A stretch of 64,000 nt of DNA from an uncultured Clostridia bacterium (GTDB taxonomy: Bacteria > Acidobacteriota > Aminicenantia > UBA2199): contig CAZWFY010000009.1 in assembly GCA_964633415.1 (NCBI GenBank), positions 7,389 through 71,388 on the forward strand, written 5' to 3'. Position numbers and translations under genes: made by a program. Position 1 is the stretch's first letter, and every line of letters begins with the position of its first letter. Under the pieces are notes generated by a model. The model was given only the letters and a program-made list of their open reading frames with translations, was not told the DNA's origin and made no database searches. Positions 1,229-16,100 of the stretch are shown piece after piece.

Positions 1229-2173
1229 ATGGGAACGGTTCTTATAACAGGAGGAGCAGGATTCATCGGATCTCATCTGTCCGATAGATTTTTAAAAGAG
1301 GGATGGGATGTGATTGTCCTTGACAACCTTCTTACAGGGTCATCAAACAATATTTCCCACCTTATTGGTAAAGAAAAATTTAAGTTCATTAAATATGATG
1401 TTACCGATTACCTTTTTTTTAAGGAGAATATCGACCTTATCCTTCACTTTGCCTGTCCCGCATCCCCTTTTGATTACGCACAGCATCCGATACATACAAT
1501 GAAAGTTGACTCTCTCGGAACTTTGAATACATTGGGACTTGCAAAGAATAAAAAAGCAAGATATCTTTTCGCATCCACTTCGGAAATTTACGGAAGTCCC
1601 GAACAGCATCCGCAAAAAGAAGATTATTGGGGTAACGTTAATCCGGTAGGTCCAAGATCGGTTTACGATGAAGCAAAGAGATTTTCCGAAGCCATGTGTA
1701 TGGCATATTTCAGAGAACACAATATAGATATAAGAATTGCAAGAATATTTAACACTTACGGAACAAGAATGAGACTTCTTGACGGCAGAGTAATTCCTAC
1801 ATTTATCCATCAGGCATTAAAAAATCAATCCATAACAATATTTGGTGACGGATCACAAACAAGGAGTTTCTGCTTCGTTGACGATATGGTGGAAGGGCTC
1901 TATAATTTTGCTACAAAAGACGGGCTTAACGGGGAGGTTGTTAATCTTGGAAATACCGAAGAACATTCAATAAAATTTCTCGCTGAAGAGATAATAAAAT
2001 TAACGGATTCATCATCGGATATTATCAATCATGATCTGCCTGAAGATGATCCTCCTGTCAGACAACCGGATATTTTAAAAGCAAACAGACTGCTTGGCTA
2101 CTCTCCTGAAATTTCTCTCTCGGACGGTCTTAAAAAAATCATTCCGTGGTTTAAGGAAAGAAAAGATGGATAA
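1229..2173 (+). CDS. UDP-glucuronate decarboxylase (UDP-xylose synthase)-like NAD-dependent epimerase/dehydratase
   Basis: Rossmann motif VLITGGAGFIGSHL. Catalytic YDEAKRFSE (YxxxK). GDGSQTRSFCFVDD typical of the UXS/ArnA-decarboxylase subfamily. Start moved to the internal Met (MGTVLITGG) because the 57-aa upstream extension of the ORF has no homology-like features. Confidence 0.8.
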   Translation: MGTVLITGGAGFIGSHLSDRFLKEGWDVIVLDNLLTGSSNNISHLIGKEKFKFIKYDVTDYLFFKENIDLILHFACPASPFDYAQHPIHTMKVDSLGTLNTLGLAKNKKARYLFASTSEIYGSPEQHPQKEDYWGNVNPVGPRSVYDEAKRFSEAMCMAYFREHNIDIRIARIFNTYGTRMRLLDGRVIPTFIHQALKNQSITIFGDGSQTRSFCFVDDMVEGLYNFATKDGLNGEVVNLGNTEEHSIKFLAEEIIKLTDSSSDIINHDLPEDDPPVRQPDILKANRLLGYSPEISLSDGLKKIIPWFKERKDG

Positions 2174-3095
2174 GAGAATTTTCGGTCCGGTACCTTCGAG
2201 ACGACTCGGGATATCACTCGGGATAGATGTTATACCTTTTAAAACCTGTACACTTGATTGTATATATTGTGAATGCGGAAGAACAACCGATCACGGATTG
2301 GAAAGAAAAAGATTCTTTAATCCCGATGAAGTTCTGGAAGAATTGAATGATTATTTAAAAAGAAATATCCCTCTGGATTATATAACATTTTCCGGATCCG
2401 GAGAACCGACATTAAACAGTGATATAGGCTATATTATTAGAGAAATAAAAAAAATCAGTAATGTCCCGGTTGCAGTCCTTACAAACGGCACACTACTTTA
2501 TGATAAAACGGTCAGGGATGAACTTCTTCCCGCAGATCTGGTTCTCCCCTCTCTTGATGCCGTATCCGAGAATATATTTAGAAAAATAAACAGGCCCGCA
2601 AAAGGACTTCATTCATCCGAAATAATTGAGGGTCTTGTTGAATTTTCAAATATTTATAAAGGGAAAATATGGCTTGAAGTCTTCTTTGCAGCAGGAGTGA
2701 ATGATTTTGAAGAAGAGTTGGATAAGCTTTATTCAACAATAAAAAGAATTTCTCCGGACAGAGTTCAGCTTAATTCTCTTGACAGACCTCCGGCATATAA
2801 AAATACTAAAGCAGTTGATATAAATTTTCTTGAACATGTTAAAAACAGATGGAATGATCTTAATGTAGATATAATTAAAAGGATTAGAATGAGGGAGGAT
2901 ATCCCCTCTTTTTCAAAGAATCTTGAAGAAAATATACTTAACACTATTTTAAGAAGACCGCTTACGGTTCAGGATCTTGAAACTTTAACCGGGAAAAGAC
3001 CCGCCGAACTTTTAAAATATATTGATGTCTTAGAGAAGGAAAAAAAGATCAAACCTAAAGTAATAGGCGATAAAATATTTTATACATCAAAATAA
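2166..3095 (+). CDS. Radical SAM protein (CxxxCxxC; COG0731-like Fe-S oxidoreductase)
   Basis: FGPVPSRRLGISLGIDVIPFKTCTLDCIYCECG carries the 4Fe-4S/SAM cysteine triad, and FSGSGEPTLN is the glycine-rich SAM motif. Start at MDKRIF (2166) overlaps the upstream stop by 8 nt. Confidence 0.75.
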   Translation: MDKRIFGPVPSRRLGISLGIDVIPFKTCTLDCIYCECGRTTDHGLERKRFFNPDEVLEELNDYLKRNIPLDYITFSGSGEPTLNSDIGYIIREIKKISNVPVAVLTNGTLLYDKTVRDELLPADLVLPSLDAVSENIFRKINRPAKGLHSSEIIEGLVEFSNIYKGKIWLEVFFAAGVNDFEEELDKLYSTIKRISPDRVQLNSLDRPPAYKNTKAVDINFLEHVKNRWNDLNVDIIKRIRMREDIPSFSKNLEENILNTILRRPLTVQDLETLTGKRPAELLKYIDVLEKEKKIKPKVIGDKIFYTSK

Positions 3096-3171
3096 AAACC
3101 TTTCTTAAATTATACATCTGACTCGATCAATTACACTTCATTTCTTAACTATTTTGTGATATATATTCTCG

Positions 3172-4059
3172 ATGAAATTTGTCACTTTGAAAAAGTGCCC
3201 TTTATGCGGTTCTTCCGAAATCATTGATTTCAAACACGGCACAATTAATGTAAAAAAAATTGATTCCGATAATTTCAAAATAACCGACAGCTCTTACGGC
3301 TCTCTATGGGATTTTTCCCGCTGTAAAAAATGTTCATTTGTTTTTTCTAATCCAAAACTTGATAAAGAGAGTCTTATTGAATTCTATTCGGCACTTGAAG
3401 ACACGGAATATAGTGAAGAAAAAGATGGAAGGGCAAAAAATTTCAAGACGGTATTAAATAGAATAAAAAAACTTCAACCCGCAGATAATTCACTTCTTGA
3501 TATAGGGTCGGCAAGCGGTATTTTTGTAAAACTTGCAAAAGAGAAAGGTTATAATGCAGATGGTATCGAACCATCCGGATTCCTCGTAAAAGAAGCTAAA
3601 GAAAAATTCGGTATAGACCTGTTTAGAGGAACTGTCGAAGAATTTAAAAATAAGCATCGATATTCGGTTATTACTCTTCTTGACATTATTGAGCATGTCC
3701 ACTCTCCGGAAAATTTTATCTCTCAAGTATCGGAATTACTTAATGATAAAGGTCTGCTTGTTATCGTTACGCCCGATATAGACAGTTTTACATCAAAGAT
3801 AACCGGCAGCAGATGGTGGCACTACAGAATAGCTCACATTAATTTTTTTAATAAAAAATCCCTTGAATATTTACTGAAAAAAAACGGATTGGAAATAGTA
3901 GAAGTAAAAAGATATGCATGGAACTTTTCTCTGTTTTATCTTTTATCAAGACTCTTCCCAATGCTCAAAAAGAAAAAAAGTTTACAAAACGTGCTTAAAA
4001 GGATAAACTTAAAAGTACAGCTTTTTGATTCGCTGGAGATATATGCAAGAAAAATATAA
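3172..4059 (+). CDS. Class I SAM-dependent methyltransferase with N-terminal Zn-ribbon (CPLCG...CKKC)
   Basis: Motif I LLDIGSASGIFVKLAKEKGYNADGIEPSG. Four Cys in two CxxC pairs at the N-terminus. Methyltransferase type 11/12-like. Confidence 0.7.
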   Translation: MKFVTLKKCPLCGSSEIIDFKHGTINVKKIDSDNFKITDSSYGSLWDFSRCKKCSFVFSNPKLDKESLIEFYSALEDTEYSEEKDGRAKNFKTVLNRIKKLQPADNSLLDIGSASGIFVKLAKEKGYNADGIEPSGFLVKEAKEKFGIDLFRGTVEEFKNKHRYSVITLLDIIEHVHSPENFISQVSELLNDKGLLVIVTPDIDSFTSKITGSRWWHYRIAHINFFNKKSLEYLLKKNGLEIVEVKRYAWNFSLFYLLSRLFPMLKKKKSLQNVLKRINLKVQLFDSLEIYARKI

Positions 4060-4951
4060 ATATTATATAGAGTCGCTGAGGTTGGAGAGATGGCCGAGAA
4101 GTCTTGCAATTCTTCCGGGTTATATTGCCGCAATTGTATTATTGCCTAAAGAAACCAAAAGTTTTTCTCTTCTTCAGTTGATTCTCTTCCCCTTTGCAGC
4201 TTATATTTTAACTCTTCTGGTCTCGACCGCAAACTATATCATCAATGAAATCGCAGATGCCCCTTTTGATGCTTATCACCCTGCAAAAAAAGAGAGACCT
4301 CTTGTAAAAGGTGTCATAAGTGCAAAGATACTTATGATCATATGGAGCATCATTATTGTTTTTACTTCCGTTGCAGCCTACCTGATTTTTCACAGCAGTA
4401 ATCTTCTTATAACACTCGGCACACTTTTATTAGCGGGAATTCTCTACAATATTCCGCCCATCAGAATAAAAGATATACCTTTCCTTGATTCTACACTTGA
4501 ATCCGCCAACAACCCTATAAGATTCTTGATCGGGTGGGTAGTTATAGCGGGCAACTCTTTCCCGTGGTGGCTTCTGATTTCATGGTGGGCTTTCGGAAAT
4601 TTTTTAATGATAGGGAAAAGAGTTGCCGAAAAAAAGTTTCTGAGTTCCGACGAATCTTCATCATACAGAAGATCATTGAGCAGATATACACAACGAAGTC
4701 TTTTCGTTTTTATGATCCTTAATGCTCTTATCTTTCTCGTTACATTCGCCCTTTTTGCAATAGGATCGGGAATGAATACTTTTCTATATTCGATTCCCTT
4801 TATTATCATTTATCTGATAATGTTCATTAAAAAATCTTTACAGGATATAGACGGTGCGGAAGAACCGGAAAAACTTCTTAAAAATCCCTATTTTGCTTTG
4901 TATACACTTTTTCTGGTTGCGATTTTTTTATTAGCATATATACTTAAATAG
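4043..4951 (+). CDS. UbiA-family prenyltransferase (polytopic membrane protein)
   Basis: NEIADAPFD matches the NxxxDxxxD Asp-rich motif. About 8 predicted TM helices. Start at MQEKYKYY (4043) overlaps the upstream gene by 17 nt. Confidence 0.65.
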   Translation: MQEKYKYYIESLRLERWPRSLAILPGYIAAIVLLPKETKSFSLLQLILFPFAAYILTLLVSTANYIINEIADAPFDAYHPAKKERPLVKGVISAKILMIIWSIIIVFTSVAAYLIFHSSNLLITLGTLLLAGILYNIPPIRIKDIPFLDSTLESANNPIRFLIGWVVIAGNSFPWWLLISWWAFGNFLMIGKRVAEKKFLSSDESSSYRRSLSRYTQRSLFVFMILNALIFLVTFALFAIGSGMNTFLYSIPFIIIYLIMFIKKSLQDIDGAEEPEKLLKNPYFALYTLFLVAIFLLAYILK

Positions 4952-6224: not shown

Positions 6225-6539
6225 TCAATTCTTGATATGAAAAAGTAGTCTGAAAGTATCCATCACAAGGCACGATGTTGAATTTGTATTGTTTTTTTTC
6301 AAGAAAATATAATGAAGCTTTCCCCCTATAAACTGACCGGAGAAAAAGAAAAAAACCGAAATTAAAAATGACCGAGCTGACCATCCGAGTCCTGAAAATA
6401 TTCTTAGAGAAATAACAAACGGAACAGGCAGATGAACAGAAAGTACCCACTGGAGCGAAAACTTTTCAGTATTCGATCTCCAATAACCGAATGGAAGATT
6501 TAAAAAAAATATTATCACTCCAAAGAACAGATAACTCAA
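6225..6539 (-). CDS. Possible small membrane protein (104 aa, TTG start) downstream of the rSAM operon
   Basis: Strong AAGGAG sits 7 nt upstream of the TTG start on the minus strand. Product has 2-3 hydrophobic helices. No recognisable family. Confidence 0.25.
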   Translation of the reverse strand: MSYLFFGVIIFFLNLPFGYWRSNTEKFSLQWVLSVHLPVPFVISLRIFSGLGWSARSFLISVFFFFSGQFIGGKLHYIFLKKNNTNSTSCLVMDTFRLLFHIKN

Positions 6540-6656
6540 TTTTTTCTCCTTATAGACTACGGAAAAATTTTAACAAACACTTCTCAACAATTCAAATGAT
6601 GACATTCACGGAAAAGTCGGAGCAAGCAGAAAAAAATTTTATTCATTAATCATTTA

Positions 6657-7607
6657 TTAATACAATTTCTCTAACTTATACTCATAAGGAATAAACATTC
6701 GATCCTTTTTTCTCCCCAAAAATTCCAGAAGATGCTGACCGCAATTACTTCCTATTCTATTCTCTTCCAATTCTCCCACACTTTCGATTATTGAAAAGCC
6801 AGCGGATCTTAATTTTTCAATCTTTTTCGATAATTCCGTTTCCCGGGAAAGATCAAGAATATTGTCAAGTCTATTTTTAACGGCAGTCCTTGTCGGATTT
6901 ACAGGAGTTAATTTAATCAAAAATATTTCAGGATTAAAAACATCTTCAATAATCTCCGGCAAAAAAGGTGTATCCCTTGATATGGCAAAATTAAGAGTTA
7001 TCTTTCTGTCACCGTGATTATAAAAACTATTCCCATATTTTGCAATCTCTCTCAGACTCCATTTTTTCACAGGAATAGCTATATCTCTGTATTTTTCCGA
7101 TGTAGAATGTACTGAAAACTGCATTTGGAAATTACCATCTGCGTATAAATCTTTTTTTACACTAACAAGGTTCGAAAAAAAATTGTTACAACCGACTGGA
7201 GCAACTGTAGAAATGCTTGGTAAAAAACCCGGAGCTTCATAGTGATTATTAAAATTCTTTAATACATTCAATACCGAAGTATTGAATGCCGGTTCACCCA
7301 TTCTTGCAAACTGAATTTTAAACTTTTTTACATTTACCTTTAAGTCCGGGAATCTTTTGCGAATAAGAAAATCTATCTGAGAGAAAATCTCCTTTTCAGA
7401 AAGTTTCCCGTTATAATAAGAACCGGCATCACAAATAGGACATCCGACCGGACATCCGAATAAAGTTGAAACAATCAGAACCCATTTTTCGGATCTTTCT
7501 AATGGAGGCTGTAGAGACTCCACAAACTCCAAATATTTCCCTGACTCCATCTTTGCAATATATACGGTAGCTATATCTTCATTTCCGGATTTAAATAGTA
7601 TTTTCAT
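6657..7607 (-). CDS. Radical SAM enzyme, RlmN/Cfr-like fold
   Basis: GCPVGCPIC is CxxxCxxC. MGEPAFN, FSVHSTS, KLTPVNPTR and IGSNCGQH align with RlmN MGMGEP, ISLHAPN, IPWNPFPG and DAACGQL. The position of the RlmN Cys118 equivalent is Phe. Confidence 0.6.
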   Translation of the reverse strand: MKILFKSGNEDIATVYIAKMESGKYLEFVESLQPPLERSEKWVLIVSTLFGCPVGCPICDAGSYYNGKLSEKEIFSQIDFLIRKRFPDLKVNVKKFKIQFARMGEPAFNTSVLNVLKNFNNHYEAPGFLPSISTVAPVGCNNFFSNLVSVKKDLYADGNFQMQFSVHSTSEKYRDIAIPVKKWSLREIAKYGNSFYNHGDRKITLNFAISRDTPFLPEIIEDVFNPEIFLIKLTPVNPTRTAVKNRLDNILDLSRETELSKKIEKLRSAGFSIIESVGELEENRIGSNCGQHLLEFLGRKKDRMFIPYEYKLEKLY

Positions 7608-8497
7608 GAACTCCTCATATTAAAATATATTTCCATAGCGGTTTTCAAACCATCTCCGACAGCTATTGACACCTGTCTGAAAATCCCGTTCTTAGCATCA
7701 CCTATAATTAATGCTCTCTCTTTTATCATATCCGGAAGGTTGTTATCTCTGTATAATTCTGTGTATAGTACATTGTCGGAAACTCTTCCTGTTGCAAAAA
7801 TCACTGAATCGAATCGTCTGGAAAAATTCTCACTCCCTCCCAAAAAAGATACGATAAGCTTCCCGTCGGAATTATGTTCAATTGATTTTATATAGACACC
7901 GGATAATATCTCACTTTTATCAGACATCCTCACCCTTTCAACAAGAGTACTTAAAGCACGAGGTTTATTTGAACGTAAAGCAATAGTCGTATTATTTGAT
8001 CCGGAAAGAGAGAGAGCATAATCGAATGCAGCATCACCTCCACCGATAATCAGAAAATTTTTCCCCGATAGACCTATAAGTTCTGTAATCTCAAAAAAGA
8101 TATTTCCTTTAATTTCATCGGAAAATCCATCAACAGATTCCGGATATACAGGAACTGTTCCCGTTGCAAAAACGACATAGTCCGAAAAATATATACCTCT
8201 GTCAAAAAAAATTTTGAATCTGTTTTTTTTTCTGTCAAATTTAACGACTTCAACCTTTGAATAGATAACATCAATATCAAGTAAATCCAAGTGTTTACCA
8301 AAAAGATCCGATAAATTCTCTCCGCTTATTCCTTTCGGAAATCCCGGATAATTCTCTATCAAATATCCGTTACGAAGCAGCCCTCCGACTCTTTTCTTTT
8401 CGAACAGGAAAAAACCGATTCCAAATCTTTTTAGCTGAATTGCAAGAGAAATTCCTGCGGGACCGGCTCCGATGACGGAAACACTTCTGAAATTCAT
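7604..8497 (-). CDS. FAD/NAD(P)-dependent oxidoreductase, thioredoxin-reductase-like FNR type (no redox CxxC)
   Basis: VSVIGAGPAGISLAIQL is the FAD GxGxxG motif. LIIGGGDAAFDYALSL is the NAD(P) site. No CxxC disulfide. Overlaps the rSAM gene by 4 nt. Confidence 0.75.
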   Translation of the reverse strand: MNFRSVSVIGAGPAGISLAIQLKRFGIGFFLFEKKRVGGLLRNGYLIENYPGFPKGISGENLSDLFGKHLDLLDIDVIYSKVEVVKFDRKKNRFKIFFDRGIYFSDYVVFATGTVPVYPESVDGFSDEIKGNIFFEITELIGLSGKNFLIIGGGDAAFDYALSLSGSNNTTIALRSNKPRALSTLVERVRMSDKSEILSGVYIKSIEHNSDGKLIVSFLGGSENFSRRFDSVIFATGRVSDNVLYTELYRDNNLPDMIKERALIIGDAKNGIFRQVSIAVGDGLKTAMEIYFNMRSS

Positions 8498-9154
8498 TTA
8501 ACCGAACCGCTCTATAACCTCGTTTGCAAAAACCGGATATGCAAATCCATGTGAAATATTCAGAAGTGATGATAGATGGAAATCTCTATTATAAGTTGCA
8601 GTAAAATCAATCCCGAAAAAAGTATCATACCCTCTTACAAATGCTTCTCTTGCAGTTGTTTCACAACAGAGATGGGTCATCACTCCTCCGATAAGGACCT
8701 GGGTGACATTTTTTGCCTTTAAGATACTTTCCAGATTAGTATTGTAAAATGCATTATACTGCGTCTTTTCAATTACAACTGCTTTTTCACTTAATTCCGA
8801 GTCAATAAGTTCGGAATACTCATCTTCTTTTCTTATGAAATCACGCCACCATTTCCCCATCTGTTCCGCATTCTCTTTTGTATTAATATGACGTGTCATA
8901 ATTACAGGCATTGAGAATTCAAAAAAAATATCACTTATCATCTTGATATGTTTAATAATAGACTCCCCTTGAGGAATAAAAGCATGAGAATTCTTATCAA
9001 AAAAAAATTTTTGCATATCAAGAATCAGGAAACATATATTCCCTTTTTTCATTTTTAATTCGTGCATATCACGAAATTTCAGAATATTTTTTAAAATTCT
9101 ATTTTCAGGATCGTCTTTTATTAAAGAATCAAAATACTTCTCTTTAATCATCAT
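8498..9154 (-). CDS. Isochorismatase-family cysteine hydrolase
   Basis: ICFLILDMQ and VLIGGVMTHLCCETTAREAF match the nicotinamidase/isochorismatase fold with a catalytic Cys. Start taken at the internal MMIKEKYF. The ORF could extend to 9193. Confidence 0.7.
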   Translation of the reverse strand: MMIKEKYFDSLIKDDPENRILKNILKFRDMHELKMKKGNICFLILDMQKFFFDKNSHAFIPQGESIIKHIKMISDIFFEFSMPVIMTRHINTKENAEQMGKWWRDFIRKEDEYSELIDSELSEKAVVIEKTQYNAFYNTNLESILKAKNVTQVLIGGVMTHLCCETTAREAFVRGYDTFFGIDFTATYNRDFHLSSLLNISHGFAYPVFANEVIERFG

Positions 9155-9369
9155 TTCTCTTTCCCCAAACCTATTTTTCTCCCGCAGTTTCAATTAGAGA
9201 GGGTTTTAAAAATTTTTTCATTTGCTTTCCCTTTTTATTGAATAAGTAATTGATTTTAGACTAACAAAAACCATCAGTCAACAGATCAGAACAAAAACTT
9301 TTGCTTAATATTGATTATTTTTTTTAGGATACATAGAATGAACTTGTTAAGATTGATCGGGAGGAATAA

Positions 9370-9831
9370 ATGAAAAATTGTGAAGAGATACTTATTGAAA
9401 AAGGTACAAATATGATATTTGTAAAAGATGATGTCAATATAGATGAAGCCGTCAGAATTATGCTTAAAAACAATATCGGGGCAATTCTCGTAAAGAGAAA
9501 TGAAGAGGTGATCGGTATTTGGACGGAGCGTGATCTTATGAGAAATATTACAATGGACAATTTTGATCCGAAAAAAGCAATAATCAAAAATTATATGACA
9601 AAAAATCTGATTTCAGCTCTTTCCACTGATAGCGTATATAATCTTATGGATAAATTTCTCGGGAAAAGATTGCGTCATCTTCTTATTGAAAAAGAGGGCA
9701 AATATATCGGTCTTCTTTCAATCGGAGATGTCATAAAAGCAACATTAAGAGCAAAAACCGAAGAACTCAACGAATTAAAAGCCATGGTCAGTTGGGATTA
9801 TTATGAAGATTGGGGGTGGCAGAAGAAATAA
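9370..9831 (+). CDS. CBS-domain pair protein
   Basis: Two CBS-like units (GAILVKRNEEVIGIWTERDLMR and RHLLIEKEGKYIGLLSIGDVIKA). Confidence 0.7.
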   Translation: MKNCEEILIEKGTNMIFVKDDVNIDEAVRIMLKNNIGAILVKRNEEVIGIWTERDLMRNITMDNFDPKKAIIKNYMTKNLISALSTDSVYNLMDKFLGKRLRHLLIEKEGKYIGLLSIGDVIKATLRAKTEELNELKAMVSWDYYEDWGWQKK

Positions 9832-13183: not shown

Positions 13184-16100
13184 ATGAAAAAGATTGTGTT
13201 ATTTATTTTTGCAGTCACACTTCTGGTTTTTCTTGGAAATAATATCTATTCCCAAGAACAATCCGGAGAGGTTATCGGAACTGTCGTATTAGAAGACGGT
13301 TCTGCTATTCCCGGAGTTCTTATCGAAGCAAGCGGTAAGAATCTGATAGGAAAGAAAACTGCCGTTTCCGATGAAAACGGAGCTTTTAGAATTCTGGGAT
13401 TACCCCCGGGAGAGTATAACTTTGTTTTCACACTTGAAGGATTTAAAACCTACAAGAGAAACGGAGTAACGATAGTTCTCGGAAAAACCATTAAACTGAA
13501 CATCGTAATGGAAACGGGCGTTATAAAAGAAGAGGTGGTTGTTTCCGGAATGGCACCGGTTATTGATGTCAGAAACAGTGCGGCTGCCGTAAACATCTCC
13601 AAGGAAGTTTTCCTCAAACTCCCCAAGGGACGTGATTTTACAAGTCTTATTGTAACTCAGGCAGGAGCAAATAATGAAAACATCGGTGGCGGACTTCAGA
13701 TGGAAGGTGCATCAAGTTCAGAGAACACTTTTTTTGTTGACGGTGTTAACACGACAACAATAGAAGGCGGAGTTTCCGGACAGAACATCAGCTATGACTA
13801 CATTGAAGAAGTACAGACCAAAACTACCGGTTATAATGCAGAGTTCGGCGGATCAATGGGTGGAGTTGTAAATGTAATAACGAAGAGTGGTGGTAATGAA
13901 TTCCACGGCGATCTGATCACATATTTCAATGCGGATTTCCTTAATGGAGAACCGAGAGATTCTCTAAGATTAAATCCTATTGACAGTACGAAAGCCGAAT
14001 ATTTTCATTATCCGAAAGACAAATATACTTCCATTGAGCCCGGTTTTTCTCTCGGCGGTTATCTGATAAAGGATAAAGTTTGGTTCTACGGAAGTTTTGT
14101 TCCGAGATTATTCAAACAGACAAGACAAGTAGATGCTATCGGACATCCGGAAGCAGCCGGAAAAGAGTATTCATACACGAGAACTTATTTTAAGGGATCG
14201 GGAAAAATTTCAGCGGCAATCACACCAAAACTTAGATTAACATTGTCGGGAACTCTTGATTCGCAGGAAGTTAAAAAAACACTTCCTCCTCAGTCAGGAT
14301 CATTTAATCCAAACGCATCCACATATGAGGATTACGGTTATAAGTATCCCGGACTGACACTTGCAGCAGGAATTGACTGGTCTATCGGAGATAACTCTTT
14401 CCTGAATGTTCAGGGAGGATATTTCCGTACAAATGCATACAGCACGAATATTCCTGAAAATGTACCGACAAGATTACGTCATATATATTCAAACTATGAT
14501 ATTCCGGGAATGCCGGATGATCTTAAAGTTCCCAGAGGATACTCAAATGTAGGATGGAGTGATATCTATCTTGATACAAAAAATATCGCAAGAAAAGTTT
14601 CAGCTAAAGCCGACTTCACAACTTATCTGAATGCAGGCGGTGAACATGTAATTAAAACAGGTTTCGGATGGAACCAGTTGTTCATGGATAAGAGTCAGGG
14701 TATCAATACACCTTACTGGGCTTTCTATTGGGGCAAATCCATCTATACAAAATTAGACGGTACCGTTGTTCCGGTAAAATACGGTTATGCAAGAGAACTC
14801 GGACCTTACGGAACAATTGCAGATGCAACAAGCAACAGATTTTCCTTCTACCTTCAGGATAGTTGGACAATTAAAGATAAGTTGACGATAAATTATGGTG
14901 TCAGACTTGAACAGGAAGAGATTCCTGCAATGGCTAAGGGTCATCCTACAGCTTTTGAATTTAAGTTTTTTGACAAGATCGCACCGAGATTCGGTTTTGC
15001 ATATGATATGAAAGGCAACGGAAAAACAAAGCTTTTCGGTAGTGCCGGAATCTATTATGATGTTATGAAACTCGACATGGTCGCCGGTTCTTTCGGTGGA
15101 TTAAAATGGGAAGATTCATGGTATGAAATCGTAAATCTTGACTGGAGACTTTATGACGGTCAGAAAGGATGGAGTTTTACAGGTTCAACCGATCCTATCA
15201 ACGGCGGACAGTTCTTAGAACATAAGAACCACAGAATCCCATCATTTGATACTATCCAACCGGCAGACTCAATGAAACCCATAAGCAAGATGGAGGTTTC
15301 TCTCGGATTTGCCCAGGAATTAAGCAACAACCTGGCTTTTACATTAAGAGGTTCATACAACAAAATGCTTCAGACTATCGAAGATATCGGTGTTCAGACT
15401 CCTTTGGGAGAAAAATACTTTATCGCTAATCCCGGTAGTGATTGGATAAATGCAAAGTATAAAGAATCCGGTGATGCAGGACTTATGCCTCCGGGAAGGA
15501 AATGTCCGGCTCCTAACAGAGAATATTATTCTCTTACATTCCAACTTGATAAAAAATTCTCAGATAACTGGTTGGGTGGTGCTTCATTAACCTTAAGCAG
15601 ACTTACAGGTAACCATTCGGGTCTTGCAAGTTCCGATGAATACGGAAGACATAATCCCGGTGTTGAAAGATATTGGGATCTCTGGTTCTTTATGTATGAT
15701 TCACACATGAAAGAAGTTATCGGACTGCTTCCGACGGACAGACCGATGGATTTTAAATTCTACGGAGCATACACCTTTGATTTCGGTCTTACAGTCGGTT
15801 TTAACGGTTATGCAAAGAGTGGAACTCCATTGTCAACCGAATTCATGCTCGACAACCAGCAGGGATGGTATCCGAACGGTAGAGCCGACCTCGGAAGAAC
15901 ACCATTCATCTGGCAGATCGATTCTTACATTGAATACACATTAAAGCTCGGTAAAGCTAATCTTCAGCTAAGTGCCAATATCTCCAATCTCACAAACAAC
16001 AATATCGCAAGAAGAACATACACTCGTATTTATGACGCAGCCGTATATCTCAGTGATTCGGAAATCGCACAGGGTTTTGATGTTGATACCGTCATGAAAT

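Follow-up and report, generated by a model that had tools for sequence, protein, structure and literature searches.

What is made or modified by a radical S-adenosylmethionine (SAM) protein that has the fold of the RNA methylases RlmN and Cfr and is encoded together with a flavoprotein and a hydrolase? This question is raised by a stretch of 64,000 nucleotides, hereafter the window, from an uncultured bacterium of the Aminicenantia (GenBank assembly GCA_964633415.1, contig CAZWFY010000009.1, positions 7,389 to 71,388). On the minus strand of the window, a gene for a hydrolase of the isochorismatase fold, a gene for a flavoprotein resembling thioredoxin reductase (TrxR) and a gene for the radical SAM protein (rSAM) follow one another in this order. 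The three genes are a conserved, translationally coupled cassette, which is distributed among bacteria and archaea and which might, as is tentatively proposed here, be used for making a precursor of folate.

Organization and distribution of the cassette

The first gene of the cassette encodes the isochorismatase-fold Cys-hydrolase (PF00857) and occupies 8498..9154 when read from an ATG, or extends to 9193 when read from a TTG. The ATG at 9154, which gives a protein of 218 amino acids, is preferred on account of the gene callers and of the lengths of homologues (215-223 amino acids). The second gene (7604..8497) encodes the TrxR-like flavoprotein of 297 amino acids with binding motifs for flavin adenine dinucleotide (FAD) and NAD(P)H, and the third (6657..7607) encodes rSAM, a protein of 316 amino acids with the cluster motif CPVGCPIC. 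The stop codon of the hydrolase gene immediately abuts the start of the flavoprotein gene. The flavoprotein gene shares 4 nucleotides with the rSAM gene, an overlap that had been noticed in an earlier reading of this DNA made without database searches (the sequence-only reading). Each of the three proteins has more than 1500 homologues, and all three are therefore real genes.

The sequence-only reading had left the significance of the trio to its co-occurrence in other genomes, and the three genes are indeed found together in hundreds of anaerobic species. When each GTDB species was represented by a single genome, the rSAM family was found in at least 578 species-level genomes, nearly all of them metagenome-assembled. 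They belong to more than 15 phyla including archaea, across which the identity is about 55%. Bacterial carriers are found in Chloroflexota/Dehalococcoidia, Aminicenantes, Zixibacteria, Cloacimonadota, Fermentibacteria, WOR-3, Eisenbacteria, Ignavibacteria, Bacteroidota, Thermotogota, Spirochaetales, Planctomycetota and Thermodesulfobacteriota, and archaeal carriers in Thermoplasmatota, Heimdallarchaeota and Methanobacteriota. Relatives of rSAM are counted in thousands, and the 120 best ones from other lineages are 52-59% identical and come from many phyla; clustering of the family at 50% leaves 163 representatives at E <= 1e-30.

The surroundings of the rSAM gene were compared in a first sample of 83 non-redundant loci, in a second, independent sample of 80 metagenome loci and in a neighbour survey of 164 non-redundant loci, 120 of which are at least 6 kb long. 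Genes in the retrieved loci were called by a crude open reading frame (ORF) picker backed by tblastn, and arrangements were counted instead of loci because the samples are phylogenetically non-independent. By ORF calling, the flavoprotein gene is located at position -1 relative to the rSAM gene in 74 loci of the first sample and the hydrolase gene at position -2 in 57. By tblastn, the flavoprotein gene was found in every locus of this sample with upstream sequence except L058, along with six further hydrolase genes. A hydrolase gene was counted in about 63 of the 77 assessable loci of the first sample and in 39 of 50 in the second, or about 80% overall, and the flavoprotein gene is located upstream in 53 of the 58 assessable loci of the second sample. 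The latter has five apparent exceptions, of which three (L123, L135 and L153) contain both partner genes, parted from the rSAM gene by unrelated cargo inserted after the flavoprotein gene: a ThaI restriction-modification pair, a nitroreductase gene, or HD, desulfoferrodoxin and ferritin genes. In L123 (1783-3338), where the insert encodes a restriction endonuclease of the ThaI type together with an N6/N4 DNA methylase, the operon is split by a mobile restriction-modification unit. The 4-nucleotide overlap is the commonest form of the junction between the flavoprotein and rSAM genes (30 loci), and searches started from the hydrolase or the flavoprotein lead back to the same cassette, while the genes flanking it vary between lineages. 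In the complete chromosome of a member of Zixibacteria, a hydrolase remnant of 49 residues (L061 8951-9097) is left just 5' of the flavoprotein and rSAM genes, which indicates that the hydrolase has been lost in some lineages.

Fusions of these genes are also found in nature. The flavoprotein is fused to the N-terminus of rSAM in P0368, which is preceded by a hydrolase gene, and in P0393, and the hydrolase is fused to its C-terminus in P0391, P0392, P0409 and P0423. A further fusion of 711 amino acids called in L057 was rejected as an artefact of ORF calling, the hydrolase and flavoprotein genes being in different frames there.

The sequence-only reading had remarked that the trio was not a known pathway. 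Likewise, no description of the cassette was found by searching the literature in full text, and no curated family matches it. Kaminska et al. (PMC2836569) mention just one small extra Cfr/RlmN subfamily of unknown function. The cassette is a three-protein system for which no described counterpart was found, centred on a branch of the RlmN/Cfr fold that is uncharacterised and has obligate partners.

The radical SAM protein

Four cysteines, those of the cluster motif C52-x3-C56-x2-C59 and C289 in the sequence GSNCGQ, are the only ones invariant across 38 members of the rSAM family, and both the cluster motif and the counterpart of C289 are also invariant in the wider clade. C289 aligns with C338 of Cfr (IDAACGQ), which is the methyl-carrier Cys and corresponds to C355 of RlmN. 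Both features had been recognized in the sequence-only reading, which had in addition assigned Phe to the position of the second mechanistic Cys (C118 in RlmN, C105 in Cfr). This position lies 7 residues ahead of the first Cys of the cluster and is in fact occupied by Ile45, and the Phe is residue 50, at -2. The essence of the claim is unaffected: in alignments of the core family, the fusions and the distant sister groups, the residue at -7 is I, L, V, M, T or N and never Cys, and fold, motifs and clade alignment agree that rSAM is similar to RlmN and Cfr without being a canonical member of either.

The similarity had been thought to extend along the length of the protein, and this is true only of the core. 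The alignment covers residues 69-347 of Cfr and positions 78-267 of the 355 of the RlmN model TIGR00048, and the match to RlmN begins at residue 93-119, the N-terminal RNA-binding domain being missing. Comparison with hidden Markov models, which the sequence-only reading had recommended, leaves rSAM far below the NCBIfam cutoffs: 35.9 bits versus 290 for TIGR00048, 27.3 versus 530 for CfrAB and 24.6 versus 550 for TIGR04432, the Cfr models overall giving 25-27 bits versus cutoffs of 468-550. The Pfam radical SAM model does not match the rSAM of the window. When a profile of the 38 family members was compared with the PDB, the sole relatives were Cfr (9p0p, E 1.7e-11) and RlmN (6fz6, 3rf9, 4pl1). 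An AlphaFold2 model of rSAM (pLDDT 86.5, pTM 0.88) was matched best by Foldseek to RlmN 3rfa (E 3e-13, TM 0.66), then to 6fz6 and Cfr 9p0p, and the next fold class, that of SuiB, was nine orders of magnitude weaker. The median pI of the family is 7.1, near neutral. Thus, by its fold and motifs, rSAM is to be grouped with the class A radical SAM methylases. It is nevertheless outside RlmN/Cfr, as it has neither the second Cys nor the N-terminal domain and does not reach the family cutoff. Public sources label the family as 'radical SAM protein' or, in JGI auto-annotation, as 23S rRNA A2503 methyltransferase, which is the RlmN reaction; the latter label is a mis-annotation.

A distant sister group of rSAM (P0487, P0505, P0465; L095 7001-9445) has a different architecture of about 815 amino acids, in which a QueT-like membrane part (transporter S-component) precedes the radical SAM part and a PNP_UDP_1 domain follows it. 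These proteins keep the Cys of 'CG' and have no Cys equivalent to C118, and they are encoded by a standalone gene in a Firmicutes-like context. The combination suggests that this branch acts on a purine- or deazapurine-like small molecule.

The flavoprotein and the hydrolase

The flavoprotein matches Pyr_redox_2/3 in Pfam. Its FAD motifs (GxGxxG and GxGPAG) and NAD(P)H motif (GGGD) are invariant in 65 homologues, in which no Cys is invariant, and the site of the thioredoxin reductase CxxC is occupied by FFEIT. Among PDB entries, thioredoxin reductases give E 1e-18 and ferredoxin-NADP reductases (FNRs) of the TrxR type a weaker E 5e-9; the score on TIGR01292 (thioredoxin reductase) is 99.9 bits versus a cutoff of 343. 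The description of the protein as TrxR-like and devoid of CxxC in the sequence-only reading is borne out by these data, whereas its name 'FNR-type' is less apt: the fold and the absence of CxxC agree with TrxR-like FNRs, in which a C-terminal extension covers the flavin, yet the match is weaker and the flavoprotein ends soon after the last FAD motif. The protein had also been supposed to be a redox partner dedicated to the radical SAM cluster, and the flavoprotein-rSAM fusions fit this idea. The fusions, the universal adjacency of the two genes and the lack of a disulfide argue for a dedicated rSAM reductase.

The hydrolase scores 116 bits on PF00857 (cutoff 27). The Asp-Lys-Cys triad, D59/K143/C176 in the numbering of the 231-residue form, is invariant in 54 cassette-linked homologues, and so are C177, H70, H102, W115 and W116. 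Its best match in the PDB is EntB (63 bits), in which the nucleophilic Cys of 'THLCCETTA' is replaced by Gly ('AHIGCMTTA' in 2fq1). It is far under every curated equivalog cutoff (51 versus 370 for BiuH, 47 versus 378 for RutB, 19.5 versus 174 for PncA, and likewise for YcaC). Judging from these motifs and scores, the protein is a Cys-hydrolase of the isochorismatase fold, as had been read before; it cannot be placed in any curated equivalog and differs from the EntB/PhzD type. Among the fused forms, the hydrolase domain of P0391 retains the Cys, while that of P0423 has Gly-Val instead ('TTDAGVAATAR'; alignment A2, columns ~901-925) and is EntB/PhzD-like in this respect.

Association with folate genes

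Folate genes are located near the cassette in 12 of the 164 non-redundant loci, in at least three arrangements. In seven loci of Chloroflexota/Dehalococcoidia (L018, L031, L033, L054, L055, L118 and L122), folP is followed by the hydrolase, flavoprotein and rSAM genes, and it overlaps the hydrolase gene by 4 nucleotides in L031, L033 and L055. The FolP proteins of these loci are 65-92% identical to each other, and the cassette-linked FolP is a bona fide dihydropteroate synthase (DHPS), with 274 bits on TIGR01496 versus a cutoff of 163. In L054, folK and a gene of the PTPS/QueD family are additionally found nearby. A longer operon, folE-folB-folK/folP followed by the complete cassette, is present in L106 and L169, and L003 ('Coxiella sp. 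DG_40') has this operon as well, except that the hydrolase gene is missing. The FolKP proteins of these three loci are just 54-55% identical, and the arrangement is therefore old. In L149, a convergent DHPS gene (286 bits) is 112 nucleotides from the rSAM gene, and in L027 folK is four genes away from the cassette.

The folE-folB-folK/folP operons encode all the steps from GTP to dihydropteroate except the supply of p-aminobenzoate (pABA), and no pabABC is included in them. In the pab-sul-folB-folK operon of B. subtilis, pab genes sit beside sul, folB and folK, in the place that the cassette takes here. Folate is the sole pathway link of the cassette that recurs in several deep, independent arrangements.

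Proposed function and alternative explanations

The function that we tentatively put forward, as one possibility, is an NAD(P)H-driven pathway in which the three enzymes handle a small molecule, the product being most likely a folate precursor and most economically pABA. A small-molecule substrate is suggested for rSAM by the absence of an RNA domain, the neutral charge, the amidase partner and the high conservation across the domains of life. Electrons would be transferred from NAD(P)H via the FAD of the flavoprotein to the rSAM cluster, and rSAM would split SAM to generate a 5'-deoxyadenosyl radical and modify a small, probably N-heteroaromatic or aromatic substrate. C289 might serve as a methyl or methylene carrier in the formation of a C-C bond as in RlmN, with the adduct resolved otherwise as the second Cys is absent, or it might serve as a hydrogen-atom relay. 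The Cys-hydrolase would cleave an amide (or a vinyl ether) in either the substrate or the product, possibly with channelling, as suggested by the rSAM-hydrolase fusions. The product, pABA or an equivalent co-substrate of DHPS made anaerobically, would then feed folate synthesis. This last step is proposed because the cassette has repeatedly been inserted beside the DHPS gene in operons with all the pterin-branch genes but no pabABC.

In its most specific form, the proposal would make the cassette an O2-independent, radical SAM-dependent route to pABA (or another co-substrate of DHPS) that replaces PabABC in many anaerobic bacteria and archaea, which we regard as rather doubtful. As a conjecture on the chemistry, the RlmN-like enzyme could put a one-carbon unit beside the ring nitrogen of a nicotinamide- or nicotinate-type ring, the nicotinamidase-fold hydrolase could deal with the amide, and the methylated pyridine could recyclise to the aminobenzoate that is its isomer. 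The formula C7H7NO2 is common to 6-methylnicotinate and pABA, and rearrangements of the Kost-Sagitullin type provide a precedent.

Several points weigh against a role in folate synthesis. To our knowledge, no chemistry connects an RlmN-type enzyme with pABA. The cassette of the window has no folate gene nearby (neither folate genes nor a second RlmN-like gene were found in the 64 kb), and about 90% of the loci are alike in this. Upstream of the cassette, no tetrahydrofolate, ZTP or other riboswitch was detected in 74 loci and the window region, and no fusion of a cassette protein to a folate enzyme is found among the listed homologues or the representatives. The hydrolase is dispensable or encoded elsewhere in about 20% of the loci. 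Furthermore, other cofactor genes adjoin the cassette. It ends a complete biotin operon in one lineage of Fermentibacteria (birA-bioB-bioF-bioH-like-bioC-bioD-bioA followed by the hydrolase, flavoprotein and rSAM genes), the flavoprotein and rSAM genes follow trxB-lipA in one locus, and thiC lies 3' of the cassette in two loci, behind its own thiamine pyrophosphate (TPP) riboswitch. The adjacency may accordingly reflect a general clustering of cofactor genes.

As to the details of these and other neighbourhoods, the biotin operon loci of Fermentibacteria (L034 2395-10951, also L037 and L059) have two tandem adenosine-deaminase paralogues just downstream on the opposite strand, and such paralogues are found near the cassette in seven loci. 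A replacement of biotin synthase by rSAM was considered and ruled out, since the operon contains bioB and bioF and rSAM is without auxiliary-cluster cysteines. The TPP riboswitches are located immediately 3' of the rSAM gene at 4858-4956 in L070 and at 5105-5206 in L157, and ThiC of the latter has the ThiC-associated N-terminal domain. A type-I phosphoribosyltransferase gene (L096 524-1075) lies 24 nucleotides 5' of the hydrolase gene at a locus with a flavoprotein-rSAM fusion, and a nucleoside transporter gene adjoins the orphan rSAM gene of L058. The remaining genes directly next to the cassette (SelB, SIR2-TPR, Nnr, methyltransferase, ferredoxin, DUF6398 and toxin-antitoxin-like) show no pattern.

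The main rival to a folate precursor is another cofactor-related or nucleobase-like target, which we consider only slightly less likely. In this case rSAM might methylate a carbon in the ring of a free purine, of a pterin or of a compound of the nicotinamide type (one such product being 2-methyladenine, which serves as lower ligand in some cobamides) or process a by-product of SAM, and its presence in vitamin operons would be due to gene clustering. RlmN and Cfr methylate C2 and C8 of adenine, and their fold and methyl-carrier Cys are retained in rSAM. The sister architecture with a QueT-like transporter part and a PNP_UDP_1 nucleosidase/phosphorylase is consistent with such a target, and so are the adenosine-deaminase paralogues, the phosphoribosyltransferase, the nucleoside transporter and the adjacent biotin, lipoate and thiamine genes. 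However, every nucleoside-related neighbour is an observation from a single lineage, genes of the cobamide, purine or NAD pathways do not recur beside the cassette, and it is with folate alone that a link appears in several deep, independent arrangements. The same adjacency to folP, folK and folE would be expected if the cassette were concerned with a different step of folate metabolism, for example with the flavoprotein acting as an alternative dihydropteroate/dihydrofolate or pterin reductase, rSAM methylating a pterin carbon, as happens for cofactors of the methanopterin type, and the hydrolase serving as a salvage amidase of the p-aminobenzoyl-glutamate type. From established chemistry, an amidase could free pABA from pABA-glutamate, and the pterin carbons beside a ring nitrogen would resemble the positions targeted by RlmN and Cfr. 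This explanation is nevertheless improbable, in that the flavoprotein-rSAM fusions indicate a redox partner rather than an independent reductase, methylated folates are not known in these lineages, and salvage needs no radical SAM enzyme.

It is very unlikely, finally, that rSAM is an rRNA or tRNA methyltransferase paralogous to RlmN and Cfr, with the flavoprotein as its reductase and the hydrolase as an unrelated passenger. Such an activity would be in line with the closest relatives by sequence and fold, with the conserved methyl-carrying Cys and with the JGI auto-annotation. On the other hand, rSAM scores about 8-fold under the curated cutoffs, lacks the RNA-binding N-terminal domain and has a neutral charge, and the resolving Cys is missing in the whole clade. 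Its obligate coupling, at times fusion, to an amidohydrolase has no precedent among RNA methylases, and an identity of about 55% between bacteria and archaea would be expected rather of enzymes acting on small molecules.

A long-standing gap is that DHPS is present in many anaerobes and archaea in which pabABC cannot be recognized. Should the cassette make pABA or some other precursor of folate, this gap would be closed, the first radical SAM step in bacterial folate synthesis would be at hand, and a new set of enzymes relevant to antifolates would be available. With a role in pABA synthesis, the cassette could represent a categorically new pathway. Whatever the product, rSAM would be the first enzyme of the RlmN/Cfr fold to act outside RNA. 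For radical SAM enzymology, the methyl-carrier Cys is kept and the intermediate would be resolved without a second Cys, and electrons would come from a dedicated, sometimes fused, flavoprotein reductase.

Other features of the window

On the minus strand 3' of the rSAM gene, there is a hydrophobic ORF of 104 amino acids (6225..6539) outside the conserved cassette. Among about 170 cassette loci it occurs only in L001, L002 and L091, it has no match in Pfam or NCBIfam, and the gene callers applied to public assemblies with the same DNA report the three cassette genes and not this ORF. It differs from its counterpart in a sister strain at 14 of 315 nucleotides (2/3/9 by codon position), compared with 16 of 152 in the flanking DNA, and is preceded by the Shine-Dalgarno sequence AAGGAG. 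Because the substitutions are biased to the third position, the divergence is below that of the flanks and the Shine-Dalgarno sequence is present, it is probably a real, lineage-specific gene for a membrane protein. The sequence-only reading was thus right about its strong ribosome binding site, whereas its inclusion with the operon does not extend to the conserved module.

Divergent from the cassette, a gene for a CBS-pair protein of 153 amino acids (9370..9831, plus strand; PF00571) is a possible accessory or regulatory partner. A CBS-pair protein is encoded near the cassette in six loci and in two arrangements, divergent upstream as in the window or convergent downstream as in the Aminicenantes-like loci of the L006/L009 type. 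In L006, L009, L020, L102 and L103, the homologues are 64-69% identical and the convergent gene is about 30 nucleotides from the rSAM stop codon. The protein may be an accessory component or regulator sensing an adenosyl ligand. Between the two divergent genes, a candidate promoter of the cassette with a sigma-70-like sequence (TTGACT-17 nt-TAAAAT; 9253..9281, minus strand) is located 5' of the hydrolase gene, and the evidence for it is weak, since the scan of the region gave 17 sigma-70-like sites versus 14.0 +/- 4.1 in shuffled sequences, which is not above expectation. Scanning for promoters and terminators was uninformative against the shuffles, and no terminator-like site was found between the rSAM gene and the 104-residue ORF.

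The surroundings of the cassette in the window are unrelated to it: RdgB/Ham1, MgtC, a UbiA/methyltransferase/radical SAM cluster, the divergent CBS-pair gene and a sulfatase-TPR protein. The cluster (2094-4951, plus strand, extending upstream in L001) consists of overlapping genes for an NAD-dependent epimerase/dehydratase, an unrelated radical SAM protein of 333 amino acids, a class I SAM methyltransferase and a UbiA-family prenyltransferase, and could be for modification of a lipid or polyprenyl-phosphate sugar; MgtC and RdgB/Ham1 come after it. Elsewhere in the window, the local G+C content rises to 0.41 at 14001-16000, over a background of about 0.33.

Comparison with known systems

RlmN and Cfr (TIGR00048, TIGR04432; 3rfa, 6fz6, 9p0p) share with rSAM the core fold, CxxxCxxC, the 'MGEP' region and the Cys of the C-terminal CGQ. 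In contrast to them, rSAM is without about 70-100 N-terminal residues, has Ile, Leu or Val in place of the resolving Cys (C118/C105), and is always paired with the flavoprotein and usually with the Cys-hydrolase, to which it is sometimes fused. The flavoprotein has the architecture of two Rossmann domains for FAD and NAD(P)H, with the GxGxxG, GGGD and GD motifs, in common with low-molecular-weight TrxR and TrxR-like FNR. Unlike TrxR, it has neither CxxC nor any other conserved Cys and fails the TIGR01292 cutoff, and it is shorter than the FNRs of the TrxR type (297 versus about 330-360 amino acids) and matches them more weakly. The hydrolase has the PF00857 fold and the Asp and Lys of the triad in common with the isochorismatase-like hydrolases, which include EntB/PhzD as well as nicotinamidase, N-carbamoylsarcosine amidase, RutB and BiuH. 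The vinyl-ether hydrolases EntB and PhzD have Gly at the nucleophile position and use Asp general-acid chemistry, whereas the cassette hydrolase has an amidase-like nucleophilic Cys at the position of Gly in EntB.

The likeness of the cassette to PabA, PabB and PabC lies in operon position alone, that is, in a block of three genes beside folP, folK and folB. By Pfam and NCBIfam, the cassette proteins have no match to PabB (anthranilate synthase-like), PabA (glutamine amidotransferase) or PabC (a fold-IV pyridoxal phosphate-dependent lyase), and there is no relation in sequence or fold. CADD (CT610) provides an oxygen-dependent route to pABA and is a non-orthologous replacement. If the cassette makes pABA, it would likewise be a non-orthologous replacement, but one that is based on a radical SAM enzyme and compatible with anoxia.

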